Positions 1 to 21,619 of a stretch of DNA of 64,000 bases are shown in pieces; position 1 is the first letter of the stretch, and every line of letters begins with the position of its first letter. A program made the position numbers and the translations under genes. The notes beneath the pieces were generated by a model that saw only the letters and a program-made list of their open reading frames with translations, was not told the origin of the DNA and searched no databases. The stretch lies in NCBI GenBank assembly GCA_965197585.1, contig OZ240215.1, positions 352,001 to 416,000 of the forward strand, given 5' to 3'. Origin of the DNA: Dehalococcoidia bacterium. Lineage in GTDB: Bacteria; Chloroflexota; Dehalococcoidia; Plut-88900.

Positions 1-494
1 TCCCACGTAACCTCTTCGGCGACATTGCCCACCAGGACCTGTCCCCAGTTGGTGTCGTTGCCCGCGTCGATGAGCCAGCGGCGCGGGTCGCCCGGCAGGG
101 TCTCCGCCATCGCCCGCCTTGCGGCGGCGTTGTCGGCGCAACCGATGATCAGGCTGTCGCCGTAGGCGGGCAGGCCGGGGTAACAGTTTCCGTGGGGGCG
201 TGTGTCACCCTCCCGGAACGGGTACACTGAGTAGCCGACGGGGCGCCGGAAGGCCCTGGCCAGCCGGTCGGCCAGGGCCTGGCTCTTGAATTTCCCGATG
301 TCCTCCGCGTAGAAGTTCTGGCGGAGCAGGTTGTGGGGCTCCACCCGGTCGTGGTCGACCAGGACGATGGTGGCCTCCCGCCCCTGGAAGAGGCGGCAGA
401 GGCCCTCGGCCACGAACCCGCCGGTGCCACCGCAGCCGACCACGGTGACCCACGGGTTGTCGAGCAGGAATGCGTTGTCCAGGTAGTAGGGCAT
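1..494 (-). CDS. ThiF/E1-like activating enzyme (PRTRC-type), 3' part runs off the window
   Basis: Not in the ORF track. Manual translation from ATG 494 (GGAGG SD upstream): MPYYLDNAFLLDNPWVTVVGCGGTGGFVAEGL...IVLVDHDRVEPHNLLRQNF...GKFKSQALA...IIGCADNAAAR...WLIDAGN, with GxGGxG, D-x-D-x-V-x-x-x-N-L-x-RQ and CxDN motifs. Confidence 0.92.
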   Translation of the reverse strand, partial: MPYYLDNAFLLDNPWVTVVGCGGTGGFVAEGLCRLFQGREATIVLVDHDRVEPHNLLRQNFYAEDIGKFKSQALADRLARAFRRPVGYSVYPFREGDTRPHGNCYPGLPAYGDSLIIGCADNAAARRAMAETLPGDPRRWLIDAGNDTNWGQVLVGNVAEEVTW

Positions 495-550
495 TGGCAG
501 TTACCTCCTTATGGTTCAGTAAGTGTTTTGCATCGATTCAGGCTCCTCGA

Positions 551-1150
551 CTATCTGCCGGACACTCCGATCCGGCCGGCTATCACCTGCGACCAGTCCA
601 CCGGGGCGAAGTGGCCGTAGACGCCCAGCCGGAGGCTCAGCTCGGGCCGGGGGGTATTGAGGCGTCCGACGACGCCGTAGATGCGGAAGCCCTGCTCGTC
701 CCGGTCGTCGGTATCAGAGAAGAACGCGCGGGAGGTTCCGTGAGAGTGGAACTCGGCGACCACCCCGGTGGGCGGCCGGTAGGTGAGGGATGTAGCGGTC
801 CCGGCCTGCGGGGGCACCACCAGCCGGTAAACCTGCCCGTCCCAGCGCACTGCGAAGAACCGCTCGGTGTCCGGGGCTATCCGGAACCAGCGTAGACCCA
901 GCTCTAAGACCTCAGCCGGGATCGGGCCGTGACCCAACACCACCTTCTCGGCCACGGGAGCGAGCCCCCGCACCTCGCAGGGGGCGACCAGAACCCGTGC
1001 CGCCAGATGGGGGCTCTCGGACTGGACGTAGACGCCTCCGGCTCCGAGCACGTAGTCATAGCCGATTCCCTGGACGCCGGAGAGTCCGGCGGGGTGGTTG
1101 ACCAGGTAGCCTACCGGCTCCGGTCTTGCCCTAGCGGTAGCGGTAGCCAA
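551..1150 (-). CDS. JAB/JAMM metallopeptidase (Prok-JAB, PRTRC protein A-like)
   Basis: Upstream E (DTERFFAV) plus EFHSHGTSRAFFSDTDDRDE (HxH...S..D) and RIYGVVGRL. Likely TTG start at 1150 after GAGGGGAG; the track start at 1231 overlaps the E2 gene. Confidence 0.9.
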   Translation of the reverse strand: MATATARARPEPVGYLVNHPAGLSGVQGIGYDYVLGAGGVYVQSESPHLAARVLVAPCEVRGLAPVAEKVVLGHGPIPAEVLELGLRWFRIAPDTERFFAVRWDGQVYRLVVPPQAGTATSLTYRPPTGVVAEFHSHGTSRAFFSDTDDRDEQGFRIYGVVGRLNTPRPELSLRLGVYGHFAPVDWSQVIAGRIGVSGR

Positions 1151-1841
1151 GTCTCCCCTCGGAGACTGCCATGGCGTGGGACACGGTACACTGGGGAACA
1201 AGGTCCTCGGTTGGGTACTCAGTCTTTCCATCGATTTCCTCCCATAGCGATAGCAGGTTAGCGGGGTGCTTCTTCGAGCGGTCCCGGGAGTCCCCGGTGA
1301 GCGAGAAGTAGGACTGGAAGAAGGACTCCGGTATCAGCCCCACCTCCTCGGGGAACCGGTGGCTTCCGGGGCAGACCCTCCCGTCCCCGAAGACGTTGAA
1401 GGCCGGGGCCCGGAAGAGCTGCTGCTCGGCGTCGCTGGGCCGGTCCTTTGCGGCGTAGACCAAGGGCGCCCGGCCCGGCGAGCAGATGAAGACCAGGCCG
1501 GGCATGGGGAGCCTGAGCCTTGCGGGAGGCTTGAACGCCTCCCGCTGCAGGGCCACCGGCCGCACCTGCGGCGGCCGCCAGAGGGCCACCACCTGCCCGG
1601 TCTCGCCCTGGTTCCACCAGAGGGTTGCCTCCGGCAGCAGCCCCGAGGAGAACCCCAGGTGCCGGGTGAACACGTTAGCGATCTCGTCCGCCGAGACGGT
1701 CCTGACCCAGGCGGAGTCGCCGTCGAAGCCCCTCAGCAGGATGGTCTCGCCGTACACCTCCAGCTGCAATTTGAGGTTGTCTTTAGGGGCGTCCGTGACG
1801 CCCGGCAGGGACCACCGGGTCGTGTCGGGTTCATTAGTCAT
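1131..1841 (-). CDS. Prokaryotic E2-like protein (Prok-E2_D / PRTRC protein B-like)
   Basis: LPMPGLVF...LFRAPAFNVFGDGRVCPG...FFQSYFS; N and C sit where the E2 active-site motif is expected. ATG at 1841 with GGGAGG SD. Confidence 0.85.
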   Translation of the reverse strand: MTNEPDTTRWSLPGVTDAPKDNLKLQLEVYGETILLRGFDGDSAWVRTVSADEIANVFTRHLGFSSGLLPEATLWWNQGETGQVVALWRPPQVRPVALQREAFKPPARLRLPMPGLVFICSPGRAPLVYAAKDRPSDAEQQLFRAPAFNVFGDGRVCPGSHRFPEEVGLIPESFFQSYFSLTGDSRDRSKKHPANLLSLWEEIDGKTEYPTEDLVPQCTVSHAMAVSEGRLGYRYR

Positions 1842-2676
1842 GGTCGTTGTCCTCCCTGTCTTGTTGTTGTTCGGATAGCCGCGCCAGAAGGAAGTCCAGC
1901 ATCTCGGCGAAGCGGCCGGGCAGGTCATCCTCCAGCCAGTCGGTCAACCGGCTCACCGCCTCCATGAGGGCCGTGGCCTTGCGCCACTCCTCCGTGCCCT
2001 CGGCGATGATGTCGTCGTCCCAGGGGTCGGCGAACCCGTCGTACATGCCATCGTCGTAAGAGTGGTCTAGGAAGAAGTTGCCGGTCTCGGCCCAGACCCA
2101 GGAGGCGGCCTTGGCCGCTCCCTCGAACTTTGTTTCCTTGAGCGTCTCGGTGAGGGTTTCGAGAGGTATGCCGTCCTGGGGAATCCTCTCCAGGGTCTCC
2201 TGCGGTATGCGCTCGGCGGCCGACTCAAGCCAGGCCACCCGCAGCCCGTCGGGTTCCTCGTAGTAGACGTCCGGGGGCTTGACCAGGAGGGCCATGGCCG
2301 AGAGCCCGTCCCGGTAGCCGTCCCACATCTCGTGGAGGCCGTCGTAGCCGAAGCCCATAAGCTCGAAGGGGATGCCCCTTCTCAGCCAGGACCAGGGAGG
2401 TTCGTCCCCTTCTTCCATGTACCAGTCGAAGAACGGGGCGTAGAGGGGGAAGTGGCGCTCCCCGAAGAGCTGACCGAAGCGCTCCACCCTTTTGGCTGCG
2501 TCGGGGCCGGCCAGCACCGACTCCGCGTCCCGGGGAAAGAGGCGGCGCACCAGCCCCGCGAACCAGGCGTAGTCGCCTGAGTATCCGACCAGCGTCACCA
2601 GCTCCCGCAGCGACGGCGGACGCCGCAGGAGCAGTTTTGCCAGGCCGTTCAGTAGCGGCGGGGCCGGAGCATGCAT
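1834..2676 (-). CDS. Hypothetical acidic helical protein (in the position of PRTRC protein F)
   Basis: 280-aa ORF with GC-rich codon usage, overlapping both neighbours in the Ub operon. Confidence 0.7.
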   Translation of the reverse strand: MHAPAPPLLNGLAKLLLRRPPSLRELVTLVGYSGDYAWFAGLVRRLFPRDAESVLAGPDAAKRVERFGQLFGERHFPLYAPFFDWYMEEGDEPPWSWLRRGIPFELMGFGYDGLHEMWDGYRDGLSAMALLVKPPDVYYEEPDGLRVAWLESAAERIPQETLERIPQDGIPLETLTETLKETKFEGAAKAASWVWAETGNFFLDHSYDDGMYDGFADPWDDDIIAEGTEEWRKATALMEAVSRLTDWLEDDLPGRFAEMLDFLLARLSEQQQDREDNDHD

Positions 2677-2879
2677 CTCAGGGCCTCCGCCATGCGGCCC
2701 GTGGCCGCGGCGTAGTCCTGCGCCTGGGCGCAGGCCATCTCCACGTCTGCCTGCCGTGCGGCCGCGGCGTCCAGGTCGAGGGAGCCGTCGGGCCGTGTGA
2801 GCTCCGCCGTGAGCTCAAGGATGCTGAGGTCTGCAGGTGGCGTTGCCGCCAGCAGGCCCGTAAGGGTGCGGGTGTCCAT
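2649..2879 (-). CDS. Small hypothetical protein in the Ub operon
   Basis: 76 aa, GAGGAGG SD, coupled to the downstream ORF. Confidence 0.65.
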   Translation of the reverse strand: MDTRTLTGLLAATPPADLSILELTAELTRPDGSLDLDAAAARQADVEMACAQAQDYAAATGRMAEALRCMLRPRRY

Positions 2880-2892
2880 CGGAGTCCCTCCT

Positions 2893-3099
2893 CTAGCTCT
2901 GGGCGTGGGTGAAGGCGCCCTTGGTGCCCACCCGCCGCTGGAACTCGTAGATGGTGTCTTCTCCCCTCTTGGTCTCCTTCACCGAGGCGTTGGCTATCTC
3001 CCCGTAGAAGTCGCTCAGGGTTGCCTTCACCTGGTCGACGCTCATCTGGGGGTCTGGGTCCGGGAACTCTCTGTCGGCGTATACGAAGATTCTTGCCAT
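2893..3099 (-). CDS. Prokaryotic ubiquitin-like protein (Prok_Ub / PRTRC protein C-like)
   Basis: RIFVY...FPDPDPQMSVDQVK...YGEIANA...YEFQRRVGTKG followed by a 7-aa extension; AAGGAG SD. Confidence 0.9.
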   Translation of the reverse strand: MARIFVYADREFPDPDPQMSVDQVKATLSDFYGEIANASVKETKRGEDTIYEFQRRVGTKGAFTHAQS

Positions 3100-6551: not shown

Positions 6552-7598
6552 CTAAGCTGCGATGTCGGCTATTTCGCCGTCATCCAGGTCGAGGGCCGTA
6601 ACGGTGGTGTTCAGCCGCTCGCGGTGGACTTCCTTTTGAGGCGTGTCCTCCACCAGGACCATCTCCTTGGAGGTGCGTCCCTTGACCAGGATGCGCCTGC
6701 CTTGGGCTTCAAGTACGAGGTTGTCCAGGAACCCCGCCGCCACCAGCATTGCCATGTGCCCCCTGCGGAGGGGCATGAGGGGCCGGGTGCGGTTATCCTT
6801 AGCAGGCCAGAGAGAGTCGGTGATTGCCTTGCTGACCCACAGCCCCGACGCCCGGGCCTCCCTGGCGGCCGCCACGGGATCCACAAGGCGTGTGGCGAAG
6901 AGAATGTCGCCCGCTGCTGTTATGGAGGGTGAGTAGACCGGGTAGTCATCGGCGTACAGCTCCTCGGGCTCACCCTGGGCCCACTCCCTGACCCTGGACT
7001 CGGCGTAGGTGTTGGGGGATGGGTCCGCCTTCCGGTACGCCATCAACACGACCTGGTCGAAGACCTCCCTCTCGGGACTGGGGAAGGCCCAGCAGCGGAG
7101 ATTGCCGTAGTGGGTGGCCAGGTAGCGGGCCGATACAGCCAGCCGCGACCTGGGCACTATGAAGACCAGGAGGCCGTCCTCGGCCAGGTAGCGGGTGCAG
7201 TGGGTGAGGAAGCGGTGCTCCACCCTCCTCTCGTCGCCGGAGTCCCAGTCGTAAGGAGGATTGAGGTAGAGGAGGCCGAAGGCCCCGTTGGCCATGGAGG
7301 TGTTGAAGAGGTCGCAGGCGAGGGCGTGGTCCAGGCGGGCCCCGGCTTCCTCGGCCCGGTCCTTGTGCAGTTCTACTCCGAAGGTCTCGATGGGCACGGG
7401 GACGGATGAGTTGCCCGCCATGGCCTCGGCCAGCCGGGACACGGCCTCCCCGGCTCCGCAGCAGGGGTCGAGGATGCGCAGGGCCTTCCCCCTGCTGTAG
7501 TAGGAAAGCCTAGGCGTCTCCACCAGGGTGGCCAGCATGTCCACCACCCGGTCGGGGGTGGGATAGAAGCCCCCCTTGGCCTGTGCTGCCAGTCTCAT
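6552..7598 (-). CDS. SAM-dependent DNA amino-methyltransferase (m6A/m4C; DUF6094-like)
   Basis: GFYPTP, ILDPCCGAG (motif I), GVEL, LNPPY (motif IV). ATG 7598 with AAGGAG SD. Confidence 0.88.
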   Translation of the reverse strand: MRLAAQAKGGFYPTPDRVVDMLATLVETPRLSYYSRGKALRILDPCCGAGEAVSRLAEAMAGNSSVPVPIETFGVELHKDRAEEAGARLDHALACDLFNTSMANGAFGLLYLNPPYDWDSGDERRVEHRFLTHCTRYLAEDGLLVFIVPRSRLAVSARYLATHYGNLRCWAFPSPEREVFDQVVLMAYRKADPSPNTYAESRVREWAQGEPEELYADDYPVYSPSITAAGDILFATRLVDPVAAAREARASGLWVSKAITDSLWPAKDNRTRPLMPLRRGHMAMLVAAGFLDNLVLEAQGRRILVKGRTSKEMVLVEDTPQKEVHRERLNTTVTALDLDDGEIADIAA

Positions 7599-7984
7599 GT
7601 CGTATCTCCTTTCTCTTTCGTGTCGATGCCCCGCACCTCGCCCGTGGCAAGGGTGGCGTGGAAACAGAGTTCCTCGTCTATCCTCTTGCCTTCGGCGCAG
7701 TAGGTGCAGAGGGCCGTTGAGATCGCGGTTTCCGGTGCGGCGACGACCCGCCGGACCAACGTGAAGCCGCCCCGGGGGAGGTCGCACCTGTAGAGTGGAA
7801 CCGTCCGGTCCCTGACGTCCCCTTCCGTCGCTTTCTCGTAGAAATGGGGTTGGCCGAACTCGCAGGTGTGACTGTAGGGGCCGTGAAGGCAGAGGAGGCA
7901 GACCTCGCCGTCCAGGCAGTAACGCCGCCAGGCCCTGTTCTCCTCCTCGCTCCACTGCTCGGCGGTTTTGAGGGAGCTATCCAT
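7595..7984 (-). CDS. Cys-rich hypothetical protein
   Basis: 129 aa with CLLC and CTYC; overlaps both neighbours. Confidence 0.6.
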   Translation of the reverse strand: MDSSLKTAEQWSEEENRAWRRYCLDGEVCLLCLHGPYSHTCEFGQPHFYEKATEGDVRDRTVPLYRCDLPRGGFTLVRRVVAAPETAISTALCTYCAEGKRIDEELCFHATLATGEVRGIDTKEKGDTT

Positions 7985-8615
7985 CGTAGGGTTCCTCCTT
8001 TAGGGCGAGAGTTCCCATGGCCACGGCGTCCGACAGGTCGTACCGGAGCTTCTCCGAGTTGGGGCAGCAGACCCAGGCCGATATCCCGGAGGACTGGAGG
8101 GGTGCGATCTCGCCGTTGCGCAGCCCCCGGCGCCAGAGCCAGGGGGCCCAGGAGCGGTGCAGGGGCAGGGGGCTGCGCCGGTCCAGGAACCGGTGGTGCA
8201 GGGCTGGGGCATCCTCCGTGGAGCGGGCCAGCAGGAGAAAGTCGTCCCGCTCGAAGGAGTACTCCGCCAGTCTCGTGTAGACCATCGCGTGCCAACCGCC
8301 CGTGGTGGGAAGACGGGATATCTTGGTGGTCCAGGTGCCGATGGTCTGGTTGGGTATGGAGCAGCGGAGGTAGTCCCCGGTGAGCTCCCCTCCGTCCACA
8401 CCCCGAATGACGTGGGCCGCCTCGGGGGGCTGCTTGAGCAGGGAGGCCCAGATGGCCTTCAGGGCGGTCTGGGGACCGACCATGGAGAGGAACCAGAGCT
8501 CGCGGCTGTCGGGGTTGCGGGCGAAGGCGTCGGCGGTGGCGGAGAACCCGGCGGCGGATACGGTGTACAGCTCACCGGGGTTCACGGGCTCGGTCACGGT
8601 TTGTGTTGTGGCCAT
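7977..8615 (-). CDS. Hypothetical protein in the methylase operon
   Basis: 212 aa, AAGGAGG SD, coding-like codon usage. Confidence 0.75.
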   Translation of the reverse strand: MATTQTVTEPVNPGELYTVSAAGFSATADAFARNPDSRELWFLSMVGPQTALKAIWASLLKQPPEAAHVIRGVDGGELTGDYLRCSIPNQTIGTWTTKISRLPTTGGWHAMVYTRLAEYSFERDDFLLLARSTEDAPALHHRFLDRRSPLPLHRSWAPWLWRRGLRNGEIAPLQSSGISAWVCCPNSEKLRYDLSDAVAMGTLALKEEPYDG

Positions 8616-8657
8616 GTCGGCCTCCTTTCTTATTCTCAGTGGGCGATATGGAAGCCA

Positions 8658-9167
8658 TTACACGGGAAAGCAGCCCAGCTCCTTGAGGCTTACGGCCTTG
8701 TCGTGTCCGATGACCACGTGGTCCAGCAGGTCGATGTCCAGCATCTTCGCCGCCCGGTAGAGGTCGCCGGTGAGGGCCCTGTCCTGGGAGCTGGGGGTGG
8801 GATCGCCGCTGGGGTGGTTATGGACCAGGATGAAGTGGGGCGCGGACTCGGCCACGGCGGGGCGCAGCACCTCGGCGGGCCTTACCACTACCGAATTAAC
8901 GTTGCCCTGGTAGACCACCCGCTGGCCCATGACCCGGTTCTTCACGTCCAACAGCAGCACCCTGAGTTGCTCCTGGGCCAGGGGCGTCATCTCGGGGCCC
9001 AGGAGGCGGTACACGTCCTCGGGACAAGTGATGGTCGGGGCGTCATCGTTGTGCTGGGGCCGGGTGTCGACCTGGTAGCGTACGGCCAGCTCGGACAGCA
9101 GGCCCAGGTTGCTCCTCAGGGCCTCCAGCAGGGAGGCGTTGTTTGCGATGTTCTTCTTGTCGGCCAT
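8658..9167 (-). CDS. radC: RadC-family JAB-domain protein
   Basis: QEQLRVLLLD...HNHPSGDPTPSSQD...LLDHVVIG. Confidence 0.93.
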   Translation of the reverse strand: MADKKNIANNASLLEALRSNLGLLSELAVRYQVDTRPQHNDDAPTITCPEDVYRLLGPEMTPLAQEQLRVLLLDVKNRVMGQRVVYQGNVNSVVVRPAEVLRPAVAESAPHFILVHNHPSGDPTPSSQDRALTGDLYRAAKMLDIDLLDHVVIGHDKAVSLKELGCFPV

Positions 9168-9212
9168 GTTGTTTCTCCTGTATGGGTCTGAATAGGCAGG
9201 GAAAGAAAACGA

Positions 9213-9239
9213 GGCCGCTCCCGTGTACCGGGAGCGGCC
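9213..9239 (-). terminator. Hairpin with T-rich tail on the minus strand (terminator/attenuator)
   Basis: GGCCGCTCCCG-tgtac-CGGGAGCGGCC, an 11-bp perfect stem followed on the minus strand by TCGTTTTCTTT. Confidence 0.6.
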
Positions 9240-9280
9240 CCGCGGTGCGCCTCCGAGAGGCGTGCATCGGAGAGAGCGTT

Positions 9281-9652
9281 CTAGAAGGGCTGTTCGTCCC
9301 CGTTGGACTGCTCCTCCCTGCCATGCCCGTTGCCGGAGTCGAGGAATACGACCTCCCGGGCGTGGACCTCTGTGCGGCGGCGGCGCTGACCGTCCTGGGA
9401 CTCCCAGCAGTTCTGCACCAACCGGCCCGCCACGTAGATGCGGTTGCCTTTCTCCACGTATTCGTTTACCGCTTCGGCCTGCTTTGCCCAGCAGACCACG
9501 TCATGCCAATCTGTCTCGCTGTTCCCGTCCTGTTTGCGCCGGTCTGTGGCCAGGCTGAGACGGGTGACGGCGGTGCCGCCGGGGGTGTAGCGCATCTCGG
9601 GCTGGGCGCCAACGCGTCCCAGTAGCTCTACCTTGTTCACTGTCCTGGACAT
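9281..9652 (-). CDS. ssb: Single-stranded DNA-binding protein
   Basis: VNKVELLGRVG...EMRYTPGG...ETDWHDVVCW...KGNRIYVAGRL; acidic C-terminal tip DEQPF. Confidence 0.95.
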   Translation of the reverse strand: MSRTVNKVELLGRVGAQPEMRYTPGGTAVTRLSLATDRRKQDGNSETDWHDVVCWAKQAEAVNEYVEKGNRIYVAGRLVQNCWESQDGQRRRRTEVHAREVVFLDSGNGHGREEQSNGDEQPF

Positions 9653-9775
9653 ATCGGTCCTCCTTGTTGGGTCTTGGGGTGCAGGCCAAACCCCGCACCC
9701 GGTGCTGCTAAGCGGCGGGGCCGCCCTCCCGTAGGAGAAGAGGCGGCCCCGTGGTGCGCTCCCCTGGGGGAGTGT

Positions 9776-10219
9776 CTATGCGACCCGCACGAACTCGGCG
9801 TCCCGCTCGGCCACCGACTGGCGGACTGTCACTGCAGGTTGTGTCCTATTGCTTGGGATCAGTTCGTCCTTTACAAAGCCCTTGAGGATGTGGGCGATGC
9901 CGTCTCCCAGGCCCTGGACGAACACCGAACTGCCGCCGGGCAGCCGGTTGAGCCGAGGGTCCATGCCTCCGACGCCCCGGCACTGGTCAATTACATCCTC
10001 CAATGAGGTGTCCCGCCGCAGGTGCAGGGATATGAGCCTGCAGGCAAGCTCGGTAACCCCCTGCTCGAAGCTCCCGCTCTTGCCCATCCTGCCGAAGACC
10101 TCGAAGGGGTCGCCGTCACCGTCCAGGGCCACGGTCAGGTAGAGGTCGCCGTGGGACGTGGCCAGCACGGTGGTACTGCTGGGCAGGACTTTCGGCCTGG
10201 GTCTTAACTTTTCAGCCAT
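9776..10219 (-). CDS. Stand-alone TSCPD-like domain protein (class II RNR C-terminal domain homolog)
   Basis: RPRPKVL...GDLYLTV...PFEVFGRMGKSG...RLISLHLR...VIDQCRGV. Confidence 0.75.
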   Translation of the reverse strand: MAEKLRPRPKVLPSSTTVLATSHGDLYLTVALDGDGDPFEVFGRMGKSGSFEQGVTELACRLISLHLRRDTSLEDVIDQCRGVGGMDPRLNRLPGGSSVFVQGLGDGIAHILKGFVKDELIPSNRTQPAVTVRQSVAERDAEFVRVA

Positions 10220-10502
10220 CCTTGTTGTCCTCCTCTCTCCAGCAGTGGGGGCACGGGACGAGCCCGATCCCCAGCCGGGCCTGTATCTCTTGGGTATATT
10301 TGGCGTGCACCTGCCGGAAGACCTCGTGGGCCCTCGCAATGTCCTTGACGCTGACAGGTGTGTCGCCGGGAAACATGAACCCGTCGGCTACCTCCTCGAT
10401 CTCCCTCCGCAGGGCGTGGTCGCCAACCCGGTCGACCTGGTACCAGAGCATGGCCAGGCGTTCGTCCATGACGTCGATCAAAGCGCTGCTCGTATCAGTC
10501 AT
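10212..10502 (-). CDS. Hypothetical protein (C-terminal CPHC)
   Basis: 96 aa, AAGGAG SD, overlaps the next gene start. Confidence 0.55.
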   Translation of the reverse strand: MTDTSSALIDVMDERLAMLWYQVDRVGDHALRREIEEVADGFMFPGDTPVSVKDIARAHEVFRQVHAKYTQEIQARLGIGLVPCPHCWREEDNKDG

Positions 10503-10531
10503 CACCACTCTCCTTTCACCCGGTAGGGAAA

Positions 10532-10566
10532 GAGCGGGCACGTCCCACGAAGGGACGTGCCCGCTC
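10532..10566 (-). terminator. 15-bp perfect hairpin downstream of the Rad52-like gene
   Basis: GAGCGGGCACGTCCC-acgaa-GGGACGTGCCCGCTC. Confidence 0.6.
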
Positions 10567-10580
10567 CGAACGCCGGGGCC

Positions 10581-11366
10581 CTAGGCCGCCTTCTGCTCCT
10601 GCTGTCTCTCCTTAAGCTTGCGGGCGGCACTCTTCACCAGGGGTTCCAGCTCGTCCACGGTGAGCTCCTCAAGCCCTTTGCCCGTCCGGCTCTTAGTGGC
10701 CTCCCTCACCTGCTCCTCCCCGAACCCCTGCTCGGCCCCCAGGTTGATGAGACCCGTCCTCAGGGCCTCAAGCTGGGACACGGGGGGATCTTCACCCTGG
10801 CTCTGACCAGGGCGGTTGTCCGCTACTTCTTTCACGGCAACCGCCTTTGCCGGGTCGCCGTAGAGAGCGTTCCCGAACTGGTCGCCGAAGCTCCTGAGCG
10901 CCCTCTTGAGAGCGTCAGTGACTGCTCCCTTGTATGCGGTCTCGTGGTCATCGATGGTCTCCCCGTTCACGGCGTGGAACCCCACGTCGGTGCGGGAGGG
11001 GGCGCCAGGGACGTCAACCCTGACCGTGGCGGCGTAGGCGTGGGAGGTCCTCACGTCTCCGGTCTCGGCGTTTATCATCTGGGCGTCCCGGAGGTTCACA
11101 CCACCCACCACCTCGTAGCCCCAACCCCCGTGTCCGAATATCCGGTTGGCCTGGGCGATGGCGGTGTGGCCTTCCAGGTAGGAGTAGGTGCGGTTCTTCC
11201 GGCCTGTGCGGCGTGACACAAGGGAGGGGTCGAGGGGCTGGGACAGCTCCTTGGTCACCCGTGGTGGCAGGCTGTCCCAGAGAAGGTCCAGTTCCCCGTC
11301 GCCCAATGGGGCGGCGTCGGGCCGGGCGCCGTTGTTCGTACCGTTCCTGTGCGTTCCGTTCGTCAT
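10581..11366 (-). CDS. Rad52/Rad22-family single-strand annealing protein
   Basis: SYLEGHTAIAQANRIFGHGGW...DVGF...AYKGAVTDALKRALRSFGDQFGNALY. Confidence 0.92.
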   Translation of the reverse strand: MTNGTHRNGTNNGARPDAAPLGDGELDLLWDSLPPRVTKELSQPLDPSLVSRRTGRKNRTYSYLEGHTAIAQANRIFGHGGWGYEVVGGVNLRDAQMINAETGDVRTSHAYAATVRVDVPGAPSRTDVGFHAVNGETIDDHETAYKGAVTDALKRALRSFGDQFGNALYGDPAKAVAVKEVADNRPGQSQGEDPPVSQLEALRTGLINLGAEQGFGEEQVREATKSRTGKGLEELTVDELEPLVKSAARKLKERQQEQKAA

Positions 11367-11646
11367 GTTGTGTCTCCTTTGCAGTGCTCATCTAGGTTGT
11401 TCCAATGGACCGGGGCGGGCCAACGATTGGTCCGTAAGCGACGCCTGTACCGGTGTAATCGGTACAGGCGCCGGCGTGGAGCGGGCATAGGTCTTTCCGT
11501 GCAGGGCGCGCATGGGCGCGGACCGACAGGGAGGTGAGGGGAAAGAGCTATGGAAAGGGGCGGGGGGGGTTGGAAAAGGGGAATTTAGGAAAGGGGGAGT
11601 GGGAGAGGGCCGGGGCTTTAGCGCAGTGCGGGGCAGGGGTGGGCCC

Positions 11647-12711
11647 CTACCGGGCAGCTTGTGCCGCCTTCTCAAGCAAGCGCAGGAACAGGTCCCTTCC
11701 GGTGGCAAGGGAAGCAAGCTCGGCCACGTCGTCCATGCCCCTGGGCAAGACTACGGCGGCGGCCCTGGAGCCCAGCAAGTACGCAAGGCGGGCCGTTGCC
11801 TCCCTGCCCGCATCGTCGGCGTCGAAGGCGAGGAAGACCTGGGGGCAGCCCATGAGTGCCCCGGCGACCCGTTCCAGGCCCCGTGTGCCCAGGGCGGCAC
11901 AGGCGGGGATGCCCCAGTGGGCAAGGACAAGCCAGTCGACAAGACCCTCGGTGAGGACGACCCACCGGGGAGCCCGTCCCAGTCTTCCCAGGCCGAGCAC
12001 CGGCTTGGGGCCGGGCGGCGCCTGGAACCGGGGTACGGCGCCTGGTTCGAGAGCCCTTCCTCCAAGCCAGCGGACAAGTCCGTCGCCCGTATCGGGTACG
12101 ACGATCATGCCTGCGAACCGCTCGGTGTTCCTGCCCAGGAACAGGCCCGAGTCCCGCAGGCTCTCCTCTCCGAAACCTGCAAGCTCAAGGTGGCGGCGAA
12201 GCCCGCCGCCCGGGGCGTAGCCGACGCCAAGCCGCAGGGCTTCGTGCAGGCCGATGCCCCTGAACGCAAGGTATCCCCGCCCCTCGGGGTGACGCATAAG
12301 CTCCCGGGTGTAGAACCGGGCCGCCGCCGTCAGCAGGCCCGGGTCCCGGGGTGGGAGTTGGAGTTGCCGGGAGCTCCCGGCCCCAGGGCTCCGTGTGGGT
12401 CGCTTGGCGGCGGAAGGGTTGGCGGGGTGAGGGGCGCCGTCCAGCCGCCGTATCGCCTCGGGCAGGCTCAGGCCCTCGACCCTCTGCACGAAGTCCAGGA
12501 CGTCTCCCCCGGCGCCGCAGCCGAAGCAGTAGAACCTCTCCGAGTCGCCGTACACAGTGAAGCTGCCCTCGCCCTCCTCGTGGAAGGGACAGACGCCCTG
12601 TCGAACCCGGCCCCTGCCCCGGAGCCTCACTCCCGACTCCTCCACGACGACGACCAGCGAGTACCGGGCCTTGAGAGCCGGGATGTCCACGGGAGCAGTG
12701 GCTAGGACCAT
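11647..12711 (-). CDS. DnaG-type DNA primase (CHC2 Zn finger + TOPRIM)
   Basis: CPFH...SFTV...FYCFGCGAGGDV; LTEGLVD; AFDADDAG. Confidence 0.93.
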   Translation of the reverse strand: MVLATAPVDIPALKARYSLVVVVEESGVRLRGRGRVRQGVCPFHEEGEGSFTVYGDSERFYCFGCGAGGDVLDFVQRVEGLSLPEAIRRLDGAPHPANPSAAKRPTRSPGAGSSRQLQLPPRDPGLLTAAARFYTRELMRHPEGRGYLAFRGIGLHEALRLGVGYAPGGGLRRHLELAGFGEESLRDSGLFLGRNTERFAGMIVVPDTGDGLVRWLGGRALEPGAVPRFQAPPGPKPVLGLGRLGRAPRWVVLTEGLVDWLVLAHWGIPACAALGTRGLERVAGALMGCPQVFLAFDADDAGREATARLAYLLGSRAAAVVLPRGMDDVAELASLATGRDLFLRLLEKAAQAAR

Positions 12712-13175
12712 GACCCGCCTCCCTTCCCCAGATTTCTGAGGCCCCGGAGGCTGCCCCTGGAGACCACCTTGCCGGGGAGCCAGCGCATCCCAATGACAGC
12801 CACCACTTCTAGTATGGCGTTCTCCCGGGAGACCAGGGCCGCAGCCCGGCCTGCGCCGGGGCTGTAGACCAGGACCCCCTTCTTCCCGAACCGGCGCCGC
12901 ACCAGGTCCACCCACTCGGAGTAAGCCCAGCAGGCGTCCCTCACGGGAGCGTTGGGGGTATCCACCTCGGACATCACGGACAGGGCCCCGTCCAGGTCCG
13001 CGGCCTTCCTCAACCTCCGAGCATCGTGGACGCTCTTCGCCACCGTCGGCGCCGGCACAGCGCTCTCTTCTTCCCGCACCCCGAACAGGGCCTCGATCAC
13101 CCTGTCCACCAGCTCTTCCAGGCTGTGCCGGGTACCCACTGCCCCACCGTTCATCGTTATCGCCTGCGTTGTCAT
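12702..13175 (-). CDS. Hypothetical protein
   Basis: 157 aa, AAGGAG SD, overlaps the primase start. Confidence 0.65.
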   Translation of the reverse strand: MTTQAITMNGGAVGTRHSLEELVDRVIEALFGVREEESAVPAPTVAKSVHDARRLRKAADLDGALSVMSEVDTPNAPVRDACWAYSEWVDLVRRRFGKKGVLVYSPGAGRAAALVSRENAILEVVAVIGMRWLPGKVVSRGSLRGLRNLGKGGGSWS

Positions 13176-13215
13176 ATCGAACTCCTTTCCTTGTCTTGTT
13201 GGTCTTCCTTCTTCC

Positions 13216-13428
13216 TTACCTTCGGCCTATGAGCCGCAGCACCTGCCGCACCACCACGAAGCCCGAGAAGAGTCCCATCCCGTTGAGGGCGAAGACCTCC
13301 AGGCTCCAGGTGATGGCCAGCGGCGCCACGATGAGCAGTGCCAGGACCGGCCACTTGAACCTCACCAGGCACCGGCCAACCCCGAGGGCGGCGCTCATTA
13401 CCATGGAGAGCACTACGAGAACTTGCAT
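13216..13428 (-). CDS. Small membrane protein
   Basis: 70 aa, very hydrophobic, AAGGAGG SD. Confidence 0.6.
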   Translation of the reverse strand: MQVLVVLSMVMSAALGVGRCLVRFKWPVLALLIVAPLAITWSLEVFALNGMGLFSGFVVVRQVLRLIGRR

Positions 13429-14006
13429 GTGAACCTCCTTTGCTTTTGTTCGCACCGGCATCCTCGATGCGAGACTCGACCTGACTACCGAATGGAAATT
13501 GACGCGGCTTCTCCCCGGACCGGATGCAGGCATTGGGGGGGAGATGGGTAGTTACTGGTATCCCTGAGAAGGCAACTTCATCCAGGGATTTGGGGCAGTT
13601 GGGAACAGGACCGGTGCTTCAGAGACCTGCGTCCTGGCAACTTCCGATGGAGTTGGGCGTCACGAACCAGCCGGGGCATGGGGAGCACCTCGGCCAGGGG
13701 TTCCGGCTTACGAAACGGACCCGGAGGAGCAGCGCTCGACTCCTGGACCGTCTCCCGCAGCGGATGGCGGTTGTTCCCCATGGGTGGCCGTTCGGAGAGC
13801 AGGGCTCGATCCTATGCGGCCTGGCCCGGGTCGGGGAACTCACCCTCCAGGTTTCTAGGGCGGGAAACTCTGGGAAAAGCCTGACATCACCTTCAGTATC
13901 TTCGAGCAGGTGGGCGAATGGAATACCCTCAAAGACCCAATCGGGCCCCGGCGCCCGGATCACTGCCCCCTGTTGTCCTCCGGTTGACCCGGACCGGGGA
14001 CAGCTT

Positions 14007-14810
14007 CTAGCTCCGCCACAGCCCCAGGGTCAGCACCCGGCGCAGCCACCGCCTCAGCAGGGCCCTGTTCCGCTCCACCCGCACACGGTTCAGCCGCTCC
14101 ATTCTGTCCTCGACCTGTCGCCGCCTGTCGAACTCGTCCCAGGGATAGGTGCGGGGAGGAAGGGTGAGCTCGTGCCTGCCGATCAGCTCGAGCTCCAGCT
14201 CAAGCCGCCGTATCCGGGCCTCGGTCCCGGCCACCCCCTTCCTTCCGGCCCGCACCTCATCCATTGCCTTCCTCCACCCGGCAACCAGCGGCGCCGCATC
14301 GCCGTAGACATGCTCCTCTCCGGGCTCGGGCTCCGGGGTCACGAGGTCGGGGTAATCCTTCCTCCTGGGCCGGGGCGATGCCTCTCGGGACACGGTGTCG
14401 GCGCCCCCACCGGCCTCCAGCTTTGCCAGTCTCCGTTCCGTCTGCCTTACCTCCCCAGCCTGCTTCTTCCCCAGGGCCTCGATGGCCGCTTCCAACTCTT
14501 CCAAAGCGCCTCCCAGCCTCTCGCCCAACTCTCCTACGAGCCTCTCCAGGGACTCCAGCCGTTCACCTTGCCGGCCCACTTCCGACTGGTCCCTGTTCGA
14601 CAGGTGCTGCTCAAGGGCATTGGCCAGCCGCGGCGTAAGCTCACCTGTGGTCTTGCACCTCCAGACGGTCTTGCGGTCGATGCCCAGTTCCGCAGCTGTC
14701 TTCACCTGGCCCCACTCCTCGAGGAGGTCGTGGAGTAGGGCCGTCAACCGGAGGTCTTGGAGACTCTCCAGGCTGGGAGTCACTCCCATCAATTCATCTT
14801 GGCTGTTCAT
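14007..14810 (-). CDS. HTH DNA-binding protein with coiled coil
   Basis: GQVKTAAELGIDRKTVWR HTH followed by heptad-like LESLERLVGELGERLGGALEELEAAIEAL. Confidence 0.75.
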   Translation of the reverse strand: MNSQDELMGVTPSLESLQDLRLTALLHDLLEEWGQVKTAAELGIDRKTVWRCKTTGELTPRLANALEQHLSNRDQSEVGRQGERLESLERLVGELGERLGGALEELEAAIEALGKKQAGEVRQTERRLAKLEAGGGADTVSREASPRPRRKDYPDLVTPEPEPGEEHVYGDAAPLVAGWRKAMDEVRAGRKGVAGTEARIRRLELELELIGRHELTLPPRTYPWDEFDRRRQVEDRMERLNRVRVERNRALLRRWLRRVLTLGLWRS

Positions 14811-14829
14811 CGCTTGCACCTTTCCTCGC

Positions 14830-14907
14830 TGTTCCTTTTGCCCCATTTCGTGACTGGCCGTGGAACACTGCCCCGGGAACCGGAATGTTCCTTTTGCCCC
14901 ATCTCGT
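14830..14907. repeat. 22-bp direct repeat pair (candidate protein-binding iterons)
   Basis: TGTTCCTTTTGCCCCATTTCGT (14830) and TGTTCCTTTTGCCCCATCTCGT (14886), 21/22 identical; partial third copy TTGCCCCAT at 14916. Confidence 0.8.
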
Positions 14908-15090
14908 AGCTGGCCTTGCCCCATGGCGCCTGAACCTGCTGTGGAACCCAGATGCTGCCCCCCGTTGTCCTGTAGGGGGCTCTTGCCGTGATTCCAGCTA
15001 TAGATCCACGACCCGCTTCCACCTGTATACGAACAACTTTCCCTGTACACGCCCATAACACCACATCCGGCTTCCCAAAATGAACGCCCC

Positions 15091-15120
15091 ATAAGGGGGG
15101 GTGAGCACACCCCCCCTTAT
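15091..15120. repeat. 13-bp perfect inverted repeat (candidate oriT hairpin)
   Basis: ATAAGGGGGGGTG-agca-CACCCCCCCTTAT. Confidence 0.75.
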
Positions 15121-15199
15121 ACGGCATTACGGATCGCCCTCCTCTTCTCCAGACTTTTTGCCAGGCAAGAAAACCGGTCCACAGCGAGGAGACCAAGAC

Positions 15200-15793
15200 G
15201 TGTTACCGCAATCGAGATTCCGTTTCGCCAGGCGCTTACTGCTGCCTGCCGTCACCATGCTCATGGCGACCCTCGTTGCGGTATCCGCCCTTGCCCCCGC
15301 CCTGGCCCAGGATTCGGGCCTAACCCTGGTCAACTCCGACCGGGACCTGGTCGAACGGAAGAAGGACGGGCGGTTCATAGCCCGCCCCGTGTTCAGCCGG
15401 GAGCTGGACTCCCTCTACTACGCCGTCCGCGATGCGGACAACGGCGACTGGTTGACCCTGATGTACCGGGTGCAGGGGGGCGAGAAGAAGCTCAAGGACG
15501 GCTGGGAGTATTCCTGGGAGTACCCGGCCCTGTCCGAGCAGCCCGACCTGGACCCCGGGAAGGCCTACCTGCTGGTTATCGGCGTCCCCGCCGACGCCCA
15601 GGGCGGCCCCTACGTCTTCCACGCCCTTGTACCCGTGCACCAGCCCAGCGGGATTTTCGACCGGATCCTGGCGGCCCTGAACCCCGCCAGGTGGGCAAAG
15701 GCCTTCGCCCGCTGGGTGATAGAGGGCGTTCACGGCGGCCTGTGCGGGGTCGTTGAGCGGGCCACGAGAACCGAGATCGACAACTGCGACTAA
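15200..15793 (+). CDS. Exported protein, first gene of the tra operon
   Basis: GTG start after GAGGAG; signal peptide RRLLLPAVTMLMATLVAVSALAPALA/Q. Confidence 0.75.
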   Translation: MLPQSRFRFARRLLLPAVTMLMATLVAVSALAPALAQDSGLTLVNSDRDLVERKKDGRFIARPVFSRELDSLYYAVRDADNGDWLTLMYRVQGGEKKLKDGWEYSWEYPALSEQPDLDPGKAYLLVIGVPADAQGGPYVFHALVPVHQPSGIFDRILAALNPARWAKAFARWVIEGVHGGLCGVVERATRTEIDNCD

Positions 15794-15805
15794 GGACTCT
15801 ATGCC

Positions 15806-16792
15806 ATGAACGACATCCTCACCGGAACTCCCCCCGAGCTGACCTACCTGCACCCCATGGTGCGGGAGGCCTGGATGGTTGTATGGGGCGTCGCATCGGG
15901 GGCTTTGATCGTCATCCTGGGCTGGATGGGCCTCAGCCTCATCATGCAGAACCTGCTGGGACATACCAGCACCGGGTGGCGGGAGGCGGTCCCCCGCCTG
16001 GCCCTGGGCCTCGTGGCCGCCGCCACCTCCTACTGGTGGTGCGCCCTGGTCATCGACGTGGCGCACGTAGTCTCCAAGTACATCGCCGCGGAACTGGACG
16101 TCACCCCCGGCGACCTGCTGAGGGCGCCCCTGGAGACGTTCCTCAGGACCGTGGAGGCGGGGAGCGTGGGTATGGCCCAGCTGGTGGCCCTCCTCTACGT
16201 GGTCTACGGGTTCTTCGTCCTCTACGTCCTGGTGCAGCTGGTATTGAGGCTGGCCCTGATCGACATCCTGCTGGCCCTGGCCCCCATAGCGTTGGGCCTC
16301 TGGATACTGCCCCATACGGCGGGCTGGGGGAGGCACTGGCTGAGGCTCTTCCTGACCACGGTGTTCCAGCAGTCGATACAGCTCATAGCCCTGGCATTGG
16401 GGTTCGGGTTCCTGAGAGAGTACGCCGCCATAGAGGCCTTCGAGCCGGCCCAGGACCTGGTGTGGAAGCTGCTGCTGTCGGTGGCCTTCGTCTACATGGC
16501 GACGAGAGTGCCCTCGATGCTGGGCAATGCTGGCACCTTCGACTCCTGGGTCAGCACCCTCTACTTCGGCCTCAACCTGCCGGGGACCCTGATGCGCTCT
16601 GCCAAGACCGTAGGGCTGCTCTCCGGGGGAATGGGTGGGGGGCCTGCAGGAGCAGCAGTGGGGGCGGTGGCTGCCACGGCGGCGGGGACCGGAGCGGGTG
16701 CGGCCTCGGGCCTGAGATCGGCGGCGGAAGGTGCAACCGCCGGTGGAGATGCGACCGGGGCCGGGCCTGCCCCGAGGAGCAGCGGCGAGTGA
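15806..16792 (+). CDS. VirB6/TrbL-like T4SS membrane protein
   Basis: Multiple TM segments, RLALIDILLALAPIAL...LPHT...W motif, Gly/Ala-rich tail; tra context. Confidence 0.82.
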   Translation: MNDILTGTPPELTYLHPMVREAWMVVWGVASGALIVILGWMGLSLIMQNLLGHTSTGWREAVPRLALGLVAAATSYWWCALVIDVAHVVSKYIAAELDVTPGDLLRAPLETFLRTVEAGSVGMAQLVALLYVVYGFFVLYVLVQLVLRLALIDILLALAPIALGLWILPHTAGWGRHWLRLFLTTVFQQSIQLIALALGFGFLREYAAIEAFEPAQDLVWKLLLSVAFVYMATRVPSMLGNAGTFDSWVSTLYFGLNLPGTLMRSAKTVGLLSGGMGGGPAGAAVGAVAATAAGTGAGAASGLRSAAEGATAGGDATGAGPAPRSSGE

Positions 16793-16957
16793 GCCCACTT
16801 ATTTCGATAGACGGGACTTCAACAGATAGACGAAACGAACAGATAGACGAGAAGGCACGAGGAGGTCAAGAGATGTGCAGCTAGGCAAGCGAGAACGACG
16901 TGACCCCTGGACCAGGGATAAAGACTCCCAAACAGCAACGGAAACAGGAGAAAGCGA

Positions 16958-17251
16958 ATGGAACAGCTGACCCAGACCATATCGAACATCGTGGGGATCA
17001 TGATGGGGGTGGTGGGCGCGGTGGGCGTTGCCTACTTCGTCTATGGGGCCTTCCTGTACATGACGGCAGGCGGCGGGCCCCAGCAGATGGACCGGGGGAA
17101 GAGCGCCATGCTCACCGCCCTGGCGGGCGTGGTGCTGGCGCTGCTGGCCTACGTGGTCGTTGAGGTGGTGACCGGTGCAATTGTAAACCCGGGCGTCGAG
17201 GTGGATATCCCCGAGCCCGGCACCCCCACGCCAACACCAGACGGGGGATAG
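16958..17251 (+). CDS. TrbC/VirB2-like pilin
   Basis: Two hydrophobic helices joined by GAFLYMTAGGGPQQMDRGKSAM. Confidence 0.8.
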   Translation: MEQLTQTISNIVGIMMGVVGAVGVAYFVYGAFLYMTAGGGPQQMDRGKSAMLTALAGVVLALLAYVVVEVVTGAIVNPGVEVDIPEPGTPTPTPDGG

Positions 17252-17276
17252 GCAAAGCAGAAGTGGAGGAAGAGTC

Positions 17277-18953: not shown

Positions 18954-19264
18954 TACGGGTTCTGTGGGTGGTCTTAATGGCGGGTGCGGGGTTTGCCTCC
19001 TTGGGCGCGGGGACGGACATCGAGAAGGGGAACATGCTTCTCAAGTTCGTCGAGGTGGTGGACGCTATGGCCTATGCCGCTGCAGGACTCTGCCTATTTG
19101 CCGTCGTCTGGGCCGGGTTCCTGCTCATGGCCGAGGGGGCTGAGGAGCGGAGCTCGGGCAGGGCCAGGAGCGCGGTGGTCCTGGCTATCACGGGCCTGGT
19201 CCTCACCCTCTCGGCCAAAGGGATAGCCCTGGCCCTGCTGAAGGTCACCCCAACGCTCCCGTAG
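18941..19264 (+). CDS. Second TrbC/VirB2-like pilin
   Basis: Hydrophobic helices with VWAGFLLMAEG...RARSAVVLAITGL. Confidence 0.65.
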   Translation: MAVVIRVLWVVLMAGAGFASLGAGTDIEKGNMLLKFVEVVDAMAYAAAGLCLFAVVWAGFLLMAEGAEERSSGRARSAVVLAITGLVLTLSAKGIALALLKVTPTLP

Positions 19265-19285
19265 CGGCAAGAAAAGGACAACGAT

Positions 19286-21541: not shown

Positions 21542-21619
21542 ATAGAGGTTGTTTAGACACGAACCAATAGATAGAGGCCGTTTATATACGAATCACTGTA
21601 GAAGAGAAGAAGGGAAACC

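Follow-up and report, generated by a model that had tools for sequence, protein, structure and literature searches.

The bacterial operons closest to the locus analyzed here belong to the '6d' type of ubiquitin-related systems. According to the available part of the source describing them (PMC1779556; Iyer, Burroughs & Aravind 2006), operons of this type code for a small ubiquitin-like protein (Ubl) with a conserved C-terminal Gly, a rapidly diverging alpha-helical protein, an E2-like protein, a JAB protein and an E1-like protein. The same part of the source gives as further traits a His that is absolutely conserved downstream of the E2 Cys and an alpha+beta JAB-N domain with conserved Arg and Trp, places the operons on mobile elements of several phyla, and offers addiction or defense as a guess at their function. 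The '6d' operon is identical with the PRTRC cassette (NCBIfam TIGR03735-03738 and others) and with the Pfam set of Prok_Ub, Prok-E2_D and alpha-hel2 (PF14456), the last of which is carried by PRTRC protein F. The cassette has been annotated since 2006 on plasmids and integrative conjugative elements (ICEs) of many phyla. In the literature that was searched, with subscription journals and bioRxiv supplements lying outside the search, PRTRC was met as an annotation label only and no functional study was found. The bacterial families that have been characterized are, according to the available part of 10.1101/2024.11.21.623966, Bil, type II CBASS and Bub (6E), all of which conjugate proteins, Bil and CBASS doing so in phage defense.

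We analyzed a cassette of this kind from a Dehalococcoidia bacterium (NCBI assembly GCA_965197585.1). The stretch studied, hereafter referred to as the window, is 64,000 nucleotides long and corresponds to positions 352,001-416,000 of one 3.43-Mb contig (OZ240215.1). Six co-oriented, closely packed open reading frames (ORFs), for Ubl, X, Y, E2, JAB and E1, occupy minus-strand positions 1-3099 of the window; their coordinates and those of neighboring features are collected in a table below. Family matches and gene order place the module, as a diverged member, with the '6d'/PRTRC (Prok-E2_D) cassettes, a kind known since 2006. With slightly better than even confidence, we favor the view that it is a Ubl conjugation module of an ICE backbone, directed at the replisome or sliding clamp of the element.

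The preliminary description of the window, made from its letters, had seen a complete Ub-like/E2/JAB/E1 operon of the PRTRC kind in these ORFs and had quoted the motifs GTKG, GDGRVC, HSH-x7-S-xx-D, GCGGTG and NLLRQ. All of these are present as placed in the six co-oriented ORFs, and profile searches agree with the assignment. Among Pfam models, the Ubl matched Prok_Ub (54.1 bits, cut-off 25; 1.3e-14), E2 matched Prok-E2_D (73.4 bits, cut-off 25; 2.4e-20), JAB matched Prok-JAB (29.3 bits, cut-off 25; 8.6e-7) and E1 matched ThiF (53.2 bits, cut-off 28.1). The top NCBIfam match of each of these proteins was its PRTRC counterpart (C, B, A and ThiF, respectively), with the Ubl passing the curated cut-off of PRTRC_C (TIGR03738; 47.6 bits against 45.95). 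The E1 gene continues beyond the left edge of the window, 164 of its 271 aa being inside it and the gene end lying 321 nt further left. It is complete in the genome and matches the PRTRC ThiF model over practically its whole length (positions 6-245 of 245); the truncation of E1 that would have refuted the preliminary description is not found.

On the EbN1 plasmid of Aromatoleum aromaticum the PRTRC genes follow the order ParB-E-C-F-B-A-ThiF, the core of which, C-F-B-A-ThiF, matches the order Ubl-(X)-Y-E2-JAB-E1 of the window. The Ubl G-x-K-G motif, the E2 Cys, JAB, a short ThiF-type E1 and residence on plasmids or ICEs are common to both. In the window's locus, by contrast, the E-like gene comes after E1, the Ubl has a tail and X is a gene of its own, and an SNF2-like helicase is linked, as is dnaN in sister clades.

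Motifs were compared in alignments with the EbN1 plasmid PRTRC cassette and with Ca. Chlorohelix and Deinococcus plasmid homologues. The GTKG motif occupies residues 58-61 of the Ubl, which is 44% identical to EbN1 PRTRC_C; the latter ends exactly in GTKG, whereas the window's Ubl runs seven residues past it. In E2, the Cys of GDGRVC (Cys157) and the Cys, Gly, Arg and Pro of C-x-G-x-x-R-x-P were invariant in a four-sequence alignment that included PRTRC_B. A His is found five residues past the Cys (CPGSH), and no invariant His column was seen with the EbN1, Chlorohelix and Deinococcus homologues, an alignment of only four sequences. The JAB residues H162, H164, S172 and D175, which make up the JAMM motif H-x-H-x7-S-x2-D, were invariant with respect to the EbN1 and Chlorohelix homologues. 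About 150 residues precede this motif, and no invariant Arg or Trp column was present among them in the alignment, which held only three sequences. E1 carries GCGGTG at residues 20-25 and NLLRQ at residues 55-59, and G20-x-G-G-x-G25, D47, N55, R58, Q59, K70, C119, D121 and C200 were invariant in four sequences. In these alignments the predicted catalytic motifs of all recognizable components are intact. No solved structure was matched by E2 or JAB in a sequence search.

A scan for E2 in species-representative genomes yielded 233 confirmed relatives, often several per genome, and the best 80 loci of these were compared, a gene being counted as matched when more than 0.8 of the query was covered. 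E2 was present in all 80 loci, the Ubl and X in 78 each, Y and JAB in 77 each, E1 in 75, the DUF2958 gene that follows E1 in 73, the gene for a 175-aa protein that comes next in 72, and the helicase in 67. The order helicase-Ubl-X-Y-E2-JAB-E1-DUF2958-p175 was maintained across related loci. Records titled Dehalococcoidia accounted for 79 of the 80, which agrees with the Chloroflexota host named in the preliminary description. The sole exception is an 8161-bp contig (locus L050, VXPO01000017.1) of a Gammaproteobacteria-labeled metagenome-assembled genome with the same cassette at 68-85% protein identity, and mis-binning is likely to explain the label. Purifying selection acts on all six cassette genes: median dN divided by median dS (nonsynonymous and synonymous divergence), over 150 random pairs per gene, was 0.23 for the Ubl, 0.36 for X, 0.43 for Y, 0.30 for E2, 0.46 for JAB and 0.24 for E1. 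Sequences with an unplaceable start were dropped at ORF extraction, leaving sets of only 24 for E2 and 40 for the helicase.

X had no match in Pfam or NCBIfam, and its homologues fall into 702 protein clusters at E<=0.01. Within the window's own family, Ubl and X were always separate ORFs (80 of the 80 sequences with both), the distance from Ubl stop to X start being -1 to 14 nt in 79 cases and 166 nt in one, mostly with a change of frame. The Ubl C-terminus read FQRRVGTKG in 62 of 63 distinct sequences listed and FSRRVGTKG in the remaining one; G-x-K-G was kept in all 81 family Ubls and was followed by a tail of 4-11 aa with variable sequence. With a profile of Y, the family was detected in 10 of the 401 Chloroflexota genomes sampled, including this genome and the unpublished genome G262, which contributed no other data, and seven distant loci were compared. 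Six of the seven have the Ubl and an X-like sequence in a single frame without stops, while the seventh has a frameshift within the X part. The fused ORFs run from Ubl through GTKG and a short basic linker into about 70 residues that are 37-45% identical to X. Fusion was likewise found in 24 of the 27 loci with both parts that came from a metagenome scan seeded with distant Y proteins (34 loci in total). Two of the three 'split' metagenome loci have the same junction peptide as fused loci, and sequencing frameshifts are therefore likely in them. Both arrangements occur on plasmids of cyanobacteria: Anabaena cylindrica pANACY.02 and Brasilonema pBOCT1 carry a fused Ubl-X, and on Pseudanabaena pPg_04 the two are split, the Ubl ending in ...AGTKGTT and being followed by an 83-aa ORF.

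AlphaFold2 modeled the fused form as a beta-grasp at residues 1-54 and a separate helical domain, with a predicted local distance difference test score (pLDDT) below 50 at residues 58-62, which hold GTKG; the core of the modeled fused homologue is beta-beta-alpha-beta-beta. The predicted template-modeling score (pTM) was 0.45, as expected because the two domains are independent. The beta-grasp assignment of the Ubl rests on the Pfam match and on the secondary structure of the model. Taken with the fused sequences, X is a detached C-terminal extension of a Ubl precursor and not, as the preliminary description had suggested, an independent E3/adaptor or substrate. Since Ubl and X form one ORF in sister clades, the Ubl would need cleavage after Gly61 before its activation, and the JAB of the cassette is the obvious candidate for this processing. 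In two Burkholderia PRTRC cassettes, protein C likewise has a tail, in this case of 3 aa (..GAKGAHA), and a 72-aa ORF is annotated between C and F. ORFs of this type are found at L112:2495-2713 and L113:2497-2715 (Burkholderia, hypothetical) and, unannotated, from about position 5537 onwards of L096 (EbN1). Homology of X to the Burkholderia ORF was unsupported (probability 2%, E 0.023), and so was homology of X to PRTRC protein E (probability 0.1%). A complex prediction for Y and X scored 0.22 against a mark of 0.32 in a run without controls and is evidence neither way.

These data bear on whether any protein is conjugated. The Ubl could be a sulfur carrier like ThiS or MoaD, or could be adenylated only for a small-molecule pathway; E1 weakly matches ThiF/MoeB-type adenylyltransferase models, and among proteins of solved structure MccB is the one nearest to it in sequence (E 1e-5). 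We regard this as extremely improbable. An E2 with an invariant Cys and a JAB are both present and under purifying selection, the 271-aa E1 consists of the ThiF domain only, without a rhodanese domain, no cofactor-synthesis gene was seen among the ORFs scanned, and a precursor with a tail or a fused X fits a conjugated modifier.

Evidence for the clamp comes from the 175-aa protein, which has no family assignment and whose homologues lie directly upstream of the Ubl in distant loci. Its family has a common core of K79, V81, D99-P100 and W128 together with a C-terminal L-x-L-F. Close homologues end in [RK]LF in 75 of 75 cases, in [TA]L[RK]LF in 69 and in TLRLF in 64. The ends of distant genome homologues are QLSLFG (three), QLTLFG (one) and KLTLF (one), and 24 of 25 metagenome homologues end in Q-x-x-L-F plus one residue, the other one in QLPLL. 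The beta-clamp-binding consensus is given as QL[S/D]LF or QxxLF, C-terminal in PolC, in the available part of PMC12309361. Such ends are rare in this genome: of 5555 ORFs of at least 100 aa, only five end in L-x-L-F(G). The proteins that bear a PRTRC protein E annotation, and the corresponding ones of cyanobacteria, have the same build and position, with the ends DL-x-SLL, EPSLFG, QLSLF, QLTLF and QMALL, and a profile-profile comparison (hhalign) of the 175-aa set with the protein E set gave 81.8% probability (E 1.1e-5). The 175-aa protein is thus a probable equivalent of PRTRC protein E. The preliminary description had stated that there was no protein E here; this is true upstream of the cassette, and the probable equivalent lies two genes downstream of E1.

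A dnaN paralogue is found in or beside the cassette in six of the seven distant genome loci, the seventh being on a contig of only 4.5 kb, and in four of the six it directly precedes the E-like gene. In the three loci checked, the paralogue has all three beta-clamp Pfam domains, and three paralogues tested were 32-36% identical to the single chromosomal dnaN of the genome that holds the window. An Anabaena plasmid has dnaN and dnaX beside the cassette, and dnaN was seen in 11 of the 34 metagenome loci, many of which are short. Together, the C-terminal motif and the dnaN linkage suggest a link between the cassette and the sliding clamp.

The helicase is linked as well. In the window the cassette directly follows it at the end of an arm with primase, Rad52, SSB, RadC and methylase genes, as the preliminary description had it. 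All of these genes and the helicase are co-directional, and the same genes accompany the distant cassette L105. Elsewhere in distant loci the order is different, E1 being followed by one or two genes and then the helicase, often with a DUF6094 methylase; on the Chlorohelix and Brasilonema plasmids a helicase adjoins the cassette. The helicase gave weak matches to ZorD and DpdE. Between its lobes it has a zinc-ribbon-like insert, CxxC-x23-CxxC (residues 272-302, window 4934-5026), whose four Cys were found in 40 of 40 close relatives and in three of four distant ones; no RING-like second site was seen.

Several observations weigh against an action at the clamp or against close kinship with PRTRC. 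The TLRLF end of the window's family is without the leading Gln, a residue described as important for clamp binding in the available part of PMC12309361. The homology of the 175-aa protein to protein E covers just 41 aligned columns; comparisons with single protein-E sequences were unsupported, only the profile-to-profile comparison being positive, and no NCBIfam model matched the protein. No dnaN is present in the window's element or in any of the 80 close loci, and none is annotated within 4-7 kb on each side of the canonical PRTRC loci of EbN1, Piscinibacter and two Burkholderia. In a further difference from PRTRC, three of the four recognizable components score under the NCBI cut-offs, namely E2 against PRTRC_B (66.9 bits, cut-off 131.45), JAB against PRTRC_A (58.7 bits, cut-off 101.8) and E1 against PRTRC_ThiF (98.9 bits, cut-off 144.75). 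Linkage to replication genes would be equally expected of any gene of a plasmid or ICE backbone. Finally, the counts overstate independence, since loci of one clade are related by descent and the metagenome loci include near-duplicates.

Every biochemical step of the following mechanism, its target and its timing are what we infer, the conjugation chemistry because of homology with E1/E2/JAB systems. The Ubl would be made as a precursor, with a 7-aa tail here and with the whole X domain in sister clades. Cleavage by JAB after Gly61 would expose the C-terminal Gly and, in fused forms, release X. Gly61 would be adenylated by the ThiF-type E1, and the Ubl would pass as a thioester to Cys157 of E2 and then onto a target lysine; JAB may also reverse the mark. 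Y, which has few conserved polar residues, would not be an enzyme but would provide a scaffold or confer specificity. The E-like 175-aa protein would dock on the beta sliding clamp through its C-terminal L-x-L-F, and such docking would place the action of the module at the replisome of the element, which is what we propose. The targets would be the clamp or clamp-bound replication and repair proteins, acted upon together with the linked SNF2-like helicase, probably during replication or establishment of transferred DNA.

Most of this explanation is compatible with another one, in which the clamp protein merely places the module near incoming DNA and the module is an establishment or anti-defense effector that, after entry, tags host defense or stress proteins or shields proteins of the element. 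The arm contains genes of an early or leading-region type (SSB, RadC, an orphan-type DUF6094 methyltransferase and DUF2958), and leading regions are enriched in anti-defense genes according to the available part of PMC11541004. Nothing in the cassette resembles a known anti-defense protein, no 'ThiF' was met in the leading-region literature searched, as far as its text was available, and the dnaN linkage points to replication. We therefore consider the effector role unlikely, if the most serious of the alternatives to an action at the replisome. The preliminary description had left a choice between anti-defense and control of helicase or replication proteins, and its interpretation as a whole is partly supported; the clamp-binding motif together with dnaN in sister cassettes favors the control of replication or helicase proteins.

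The window's module also has to be compared with systems of phage defense. Like the cassette, Bil (BilA-D, types I and II) has separate Ubl, E2, JAB and E1 genes, and a similar cascade is expected in view of the available part of 10.1101/2024.11.21.623966. Its families are different ones, it is without Y, X, E-like, helicase and clamp partners, and it is defense cargo, whereas the window's module belongs to a conjugative backbone. Type II CBASS Cap2/Cap3 and Bub (6E/DUF6527) share the E1/E2/JAB chemistry. The features of CBASS and Bub that the available sources give, i.e. E2-E1 (or Ubl-E2, JAB-E1) fusions, a CD-NTase or multi-beta-grasp Ubl modifier and a DUF6527 protease, are all absent from the cassette. 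In a search with PADLOC, in a release of 2023 that may not include Bub, E1 matched CBASS 'E1-E2' models with its N-terminal Rossmann part only, over the first ~80-130 residues, and Ubl, X, Y, E2 and JAB matched no family.

Could the cassette then be anti-phage or anti-plasmid cargo of the Bil or type II CBASS sort, conjugating its Ubl to proteins of an invader? The E1 match would fit this, as would the activities of the studied E1/E2/JAB operons, which conjugate proteins and, in Bil and CBASS, defend against phage (10.1101/2024.11.21.623966, in the part available). The other five proteins being without a PADLOC match speaks against it. So does the position of the module, which is a fixed part of the backbone in a DNA-processing operon (75-80 of 80 loci) and not of a variable island, and so do its companions across phyla, dnaN, the clamp-motif protein and the helicase. 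A role as defense cargo is, in our judgment, rather improbable.

The region from window position -1456 to ~25,758 occurs three times in the genome at 80-94% nucleotide identity, with a partial fourth copy, and has a G+C content of ~66% compared to 59.3% for the genome. Each of the three copies has intact versions of the nine genes that extend from the helicase to the 175-aa protein. Copies and partial copies elsewhere in the genome are located at 788.8-815.5 kb, 2630-2656.8 kb, 246-261 kb and 485.6-490 kb, five relaxase homologues, 54-100% identical, are dispersed in it, and several element copies are also common in many related Dehalococcoidia genomes. Persistence in three diverged copies could be taken as a sign of addiction, with E1/E2 and JAB modifying and de-modifying a host protein in such a way that loss of the element is harmful, as speculated in the available part of PMC1779556. 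No toxin-like component is present, however, the copies are equally well explained by repeated integration, and the context is one of replication and transfer, which makes self-maintenance of this kind highly unlikely.

Y, the second accessory protein, had no match in Pfam or NCBIfam. One search returned 843 matches to its family, another 510 representatives at 50% identity with E<=1e-3, and none of 62 diverse members matched any NCBIfam model or PF14456. The AlphaFold2 model of Y is confident and all-alpha (pLDDT 92.7, pTM 0.86). With this fold, Foldseek found no match in the PDB at E<=1e-3, the highest Z of a wide VIA search was 4.6 (Lon N-domain, 74 residues), which is far under a meaningful level for helical proteins, and the ESM Atlas gave no usable match. 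Comparison with PRTRC protein F was negative (hhalign probability 0.3% with a single sequence and 0.05% with a 10-sequence profile), and a C-terminal W/D/W resemblance between Y and PRTRC_F was weak and not significant. Apart from a single His, the near-invariant residues of Y are mostly F, P, G and W, unlike PRTRC_F with its many invariant D, E, N and Q residues. Y did match the protein directly upstream of E2 on the Ca. Chlorohelix plasmid (hhalign 95.6%, E 1.2e-8); no match was obtained with the Deinococcus protein upstream of PRTRC_B or in a tblastn search of 72,556 plasmids. Y is, in the Chloroflexota/cyanobacterial branch, the positional counterpart of the '6d' alpha-helical protein (PMC1779556, in the part available), either too diverged for detection or a replacement; the accessory protein of the preliminary description is recast accordingly, without detectable similarity to protein F. 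Its pattern of residue conservation suggests a scaffold. Fusion and fission of Ubl and X, a Y family apart from PF14456, a clamp-motif protein and linkage to dnaN and the helicase found no mention in the literature searched.

The carrier is, by its gene content, a well-supported ICE of roughly 33 kb. The cassette forms the end of a long leftward operon, and a conjugation module runs divergently from it. The conjugation module comprises a VirB6-like protein, two type IV secretion system (T4SS) pilins, a PrgI-like protein, a VirB4-type ATPase, a coupling protein and a Replic_Relax relaxase. On the right side follow two helix-turn-helix (HTH) proteins, an M78 peptidase and a large serine recombinase whose gene abuts tRNA-Glu with its end; the VirB4, coupling protein, pilins, relaxase, HTH/M78 pair and recombinase beside the tRNA gene bear out the ICE of the preliminary description. 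A recombinase homologue occupies the same place beside genome copy 3, and none was found near copy 2. The exact ends of the ICE are not fixed, because no convincing direct repeat that could represent att sites was found on comparing the left flank with the recombinase/tRNA-Glu side (the best one measured 13 nt, E 0.09). No ParB family match was obtained among 27 ORFs scanned with Pfam.

Table 1. Features of the window (Ubl, ubiquitin-like protein; positions are those of the window)
Feature	Position	Strand	Family or basis
Ubl precursor, 68 aa	2893..3099	-	Prok_Ub, PRTRC_C; beta-grasp, ...RRVGTKG (Gly61), 7-aa tail
X, 76 aa, helical	2649..2879	-	without Pfam/NCBIfam match; homologous to post-GTKG part of fused Ubl-X ORFs
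Y, 280 aa, all-alpha accessory protein	1834..2676	-	PRTRC protein F position; AlphaFold2
E2-like conjugating enzyme, 236 aa	1131..1841	-	Prok-E2_D; candidate catalytic Cys157, GDGRVC at 1371-1388
JAB/JAMM metallopeptidase, 226 aa	551..1231	-	Prok-JAB; HSH-x7-S-xx-D residues 162-175, at 707-748
E1-like adenylating enzyme, 271 aa	1..494, continuing leftwards	-	ThiF; PRTRC_ThiF
SF2/SNF2-like helicase, 880 aa	3197..5839	-	ResIII + Helicase_C (Pfam)
Rest of leftward DNA-processing operon: DUF6094 methyltransferase, RadC, SSB, TSCPD, Rad52, CHC2/Toprim primase, family-less small ORFs	6552..15110	-	Pfam
Conjugation module: VirB6-like, T4SS pilins, PrgI-like, VirB4-type ATPase, coupling protein, Replic_Relax relaxase	15101..25893	+	Pfam
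HTH regulators, M78 (ImmA/IrrE-like) peptidase, large serine recombinase, tRNA-Glu	26748..31654	mixed	Pfam, ARAGORN; probable right ICE end
Large serine recombinase, 549 aa	29986-31635	+	Pfam
tRNA-Glu	31578-31654	-	ARAGORN

The cassette genes are tightly spaced, with a gap of 13 nt between Ubl and X and overlaps of 28 nt (X/Y), 8 nt (Y/E2) and 101 nt (E2/JAB). The longest E2 ORF extends to position 1928; the ATG at 1841 is preceded by a GGGAGG ribosome-binding site, and such a site is also present 5' of JAB. The two genes downstream of E1, for the DUF2958 protein (128 aa) and the 175-aa protein, are co-directional with it and lie outside the window. A promoter and terminator scan of window positions 1-6600 gave no promoter-like and three terminator-like sites, no excess over shuffled sequences; no signal separating the cassette from the helicase was seen, and nothing in the scan proves their co-transcription either.

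Other features of the element and its surroundings were noted. A TSCPD-domain protein is encoded in the ICE arm at window 9776-10339. The DUF6094 methyltransferase (window 6552-7955) gave PADLOC matches to 'mad2' and to type II methyltransferases and recurs beside the helicase in the distant cassettes L100 and L105. In L100 (G269 contig 3), a group II intron reverse transcriptase/maturase (RVT_1, Intron_maturas2, HNH) at L100:6958-8865 lies inside the E2 gene, the E2 matches being split by the intron into 6695-7237 and 9322-9993. On the left flank of the element, genome 345.8-350.0 kb (window -6232..-1991, plus strand) codes for a protein of 1413 aa whose start resembles a signal peptide and whose gene has internal repeats of ~320 and ~800 nt. 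Beside tRNA-Glu, window 32460-33460 holds a short repeat family with more than 10 other genome sites at 77-96% identity, maybe an insertion-sequence end or a miniature mobile element. A genome self-comparison revealed a tandem duplication at window 56946-59818, with a period of ~1.07 kb and copies 81-83% identical.

Eukaryotic ubiquitin is likewise made from precursors, as fusions with ribosomal proteins and as polyubiquitin, and C-terminal extensions have to be removed. The eukaryotic sliding clamp, PCNA, is ubiquitylated by Rad6-Rad18/Rad5. The likeness of the cassette to these systems is one of analogy only and consists in an extended modifier precursor and in an E2, an SNF2-family helicase and a sliding clamp in one functional neighborhood; it differs in that no RING/E3 domain was found here and that the clamp is the bacterial beta clamp. 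Going further, mobile 6d/PRTRC cassettes might be a bacterial counterpart of PCNA ubiquitylation. The E-like adaptor would sit on the clamp of the host or of the element, E1 and E2 would attach the processed Ubl either to the clamp itself or to a polymerase or repair factor bound to it, the helicase would remodel the fork and JAB would reset the mark, so that the element takes over or protects its own replication after transfer; X, once released, would couple Ubl maturation to this switch. In this full form the idea is speculative, and we think it doubtful.

The locus provides testable handles on the function of PRTRC-type cassettes, namely the processing of the precursor as reflected in Ubl-X fusion and fission, the C-terminal clamp-type motif of the E-like protein, and the linkage to dnaN and an SNF2-like helicase. 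The element family is abundant, as attested by the 233 relatives in species-representative genomes. If the clamp link is true, ubiquitin-like control of sliding clamps would not be confined to eukaryotes, and conjugative elements would have a new way to manage replication in a new host.

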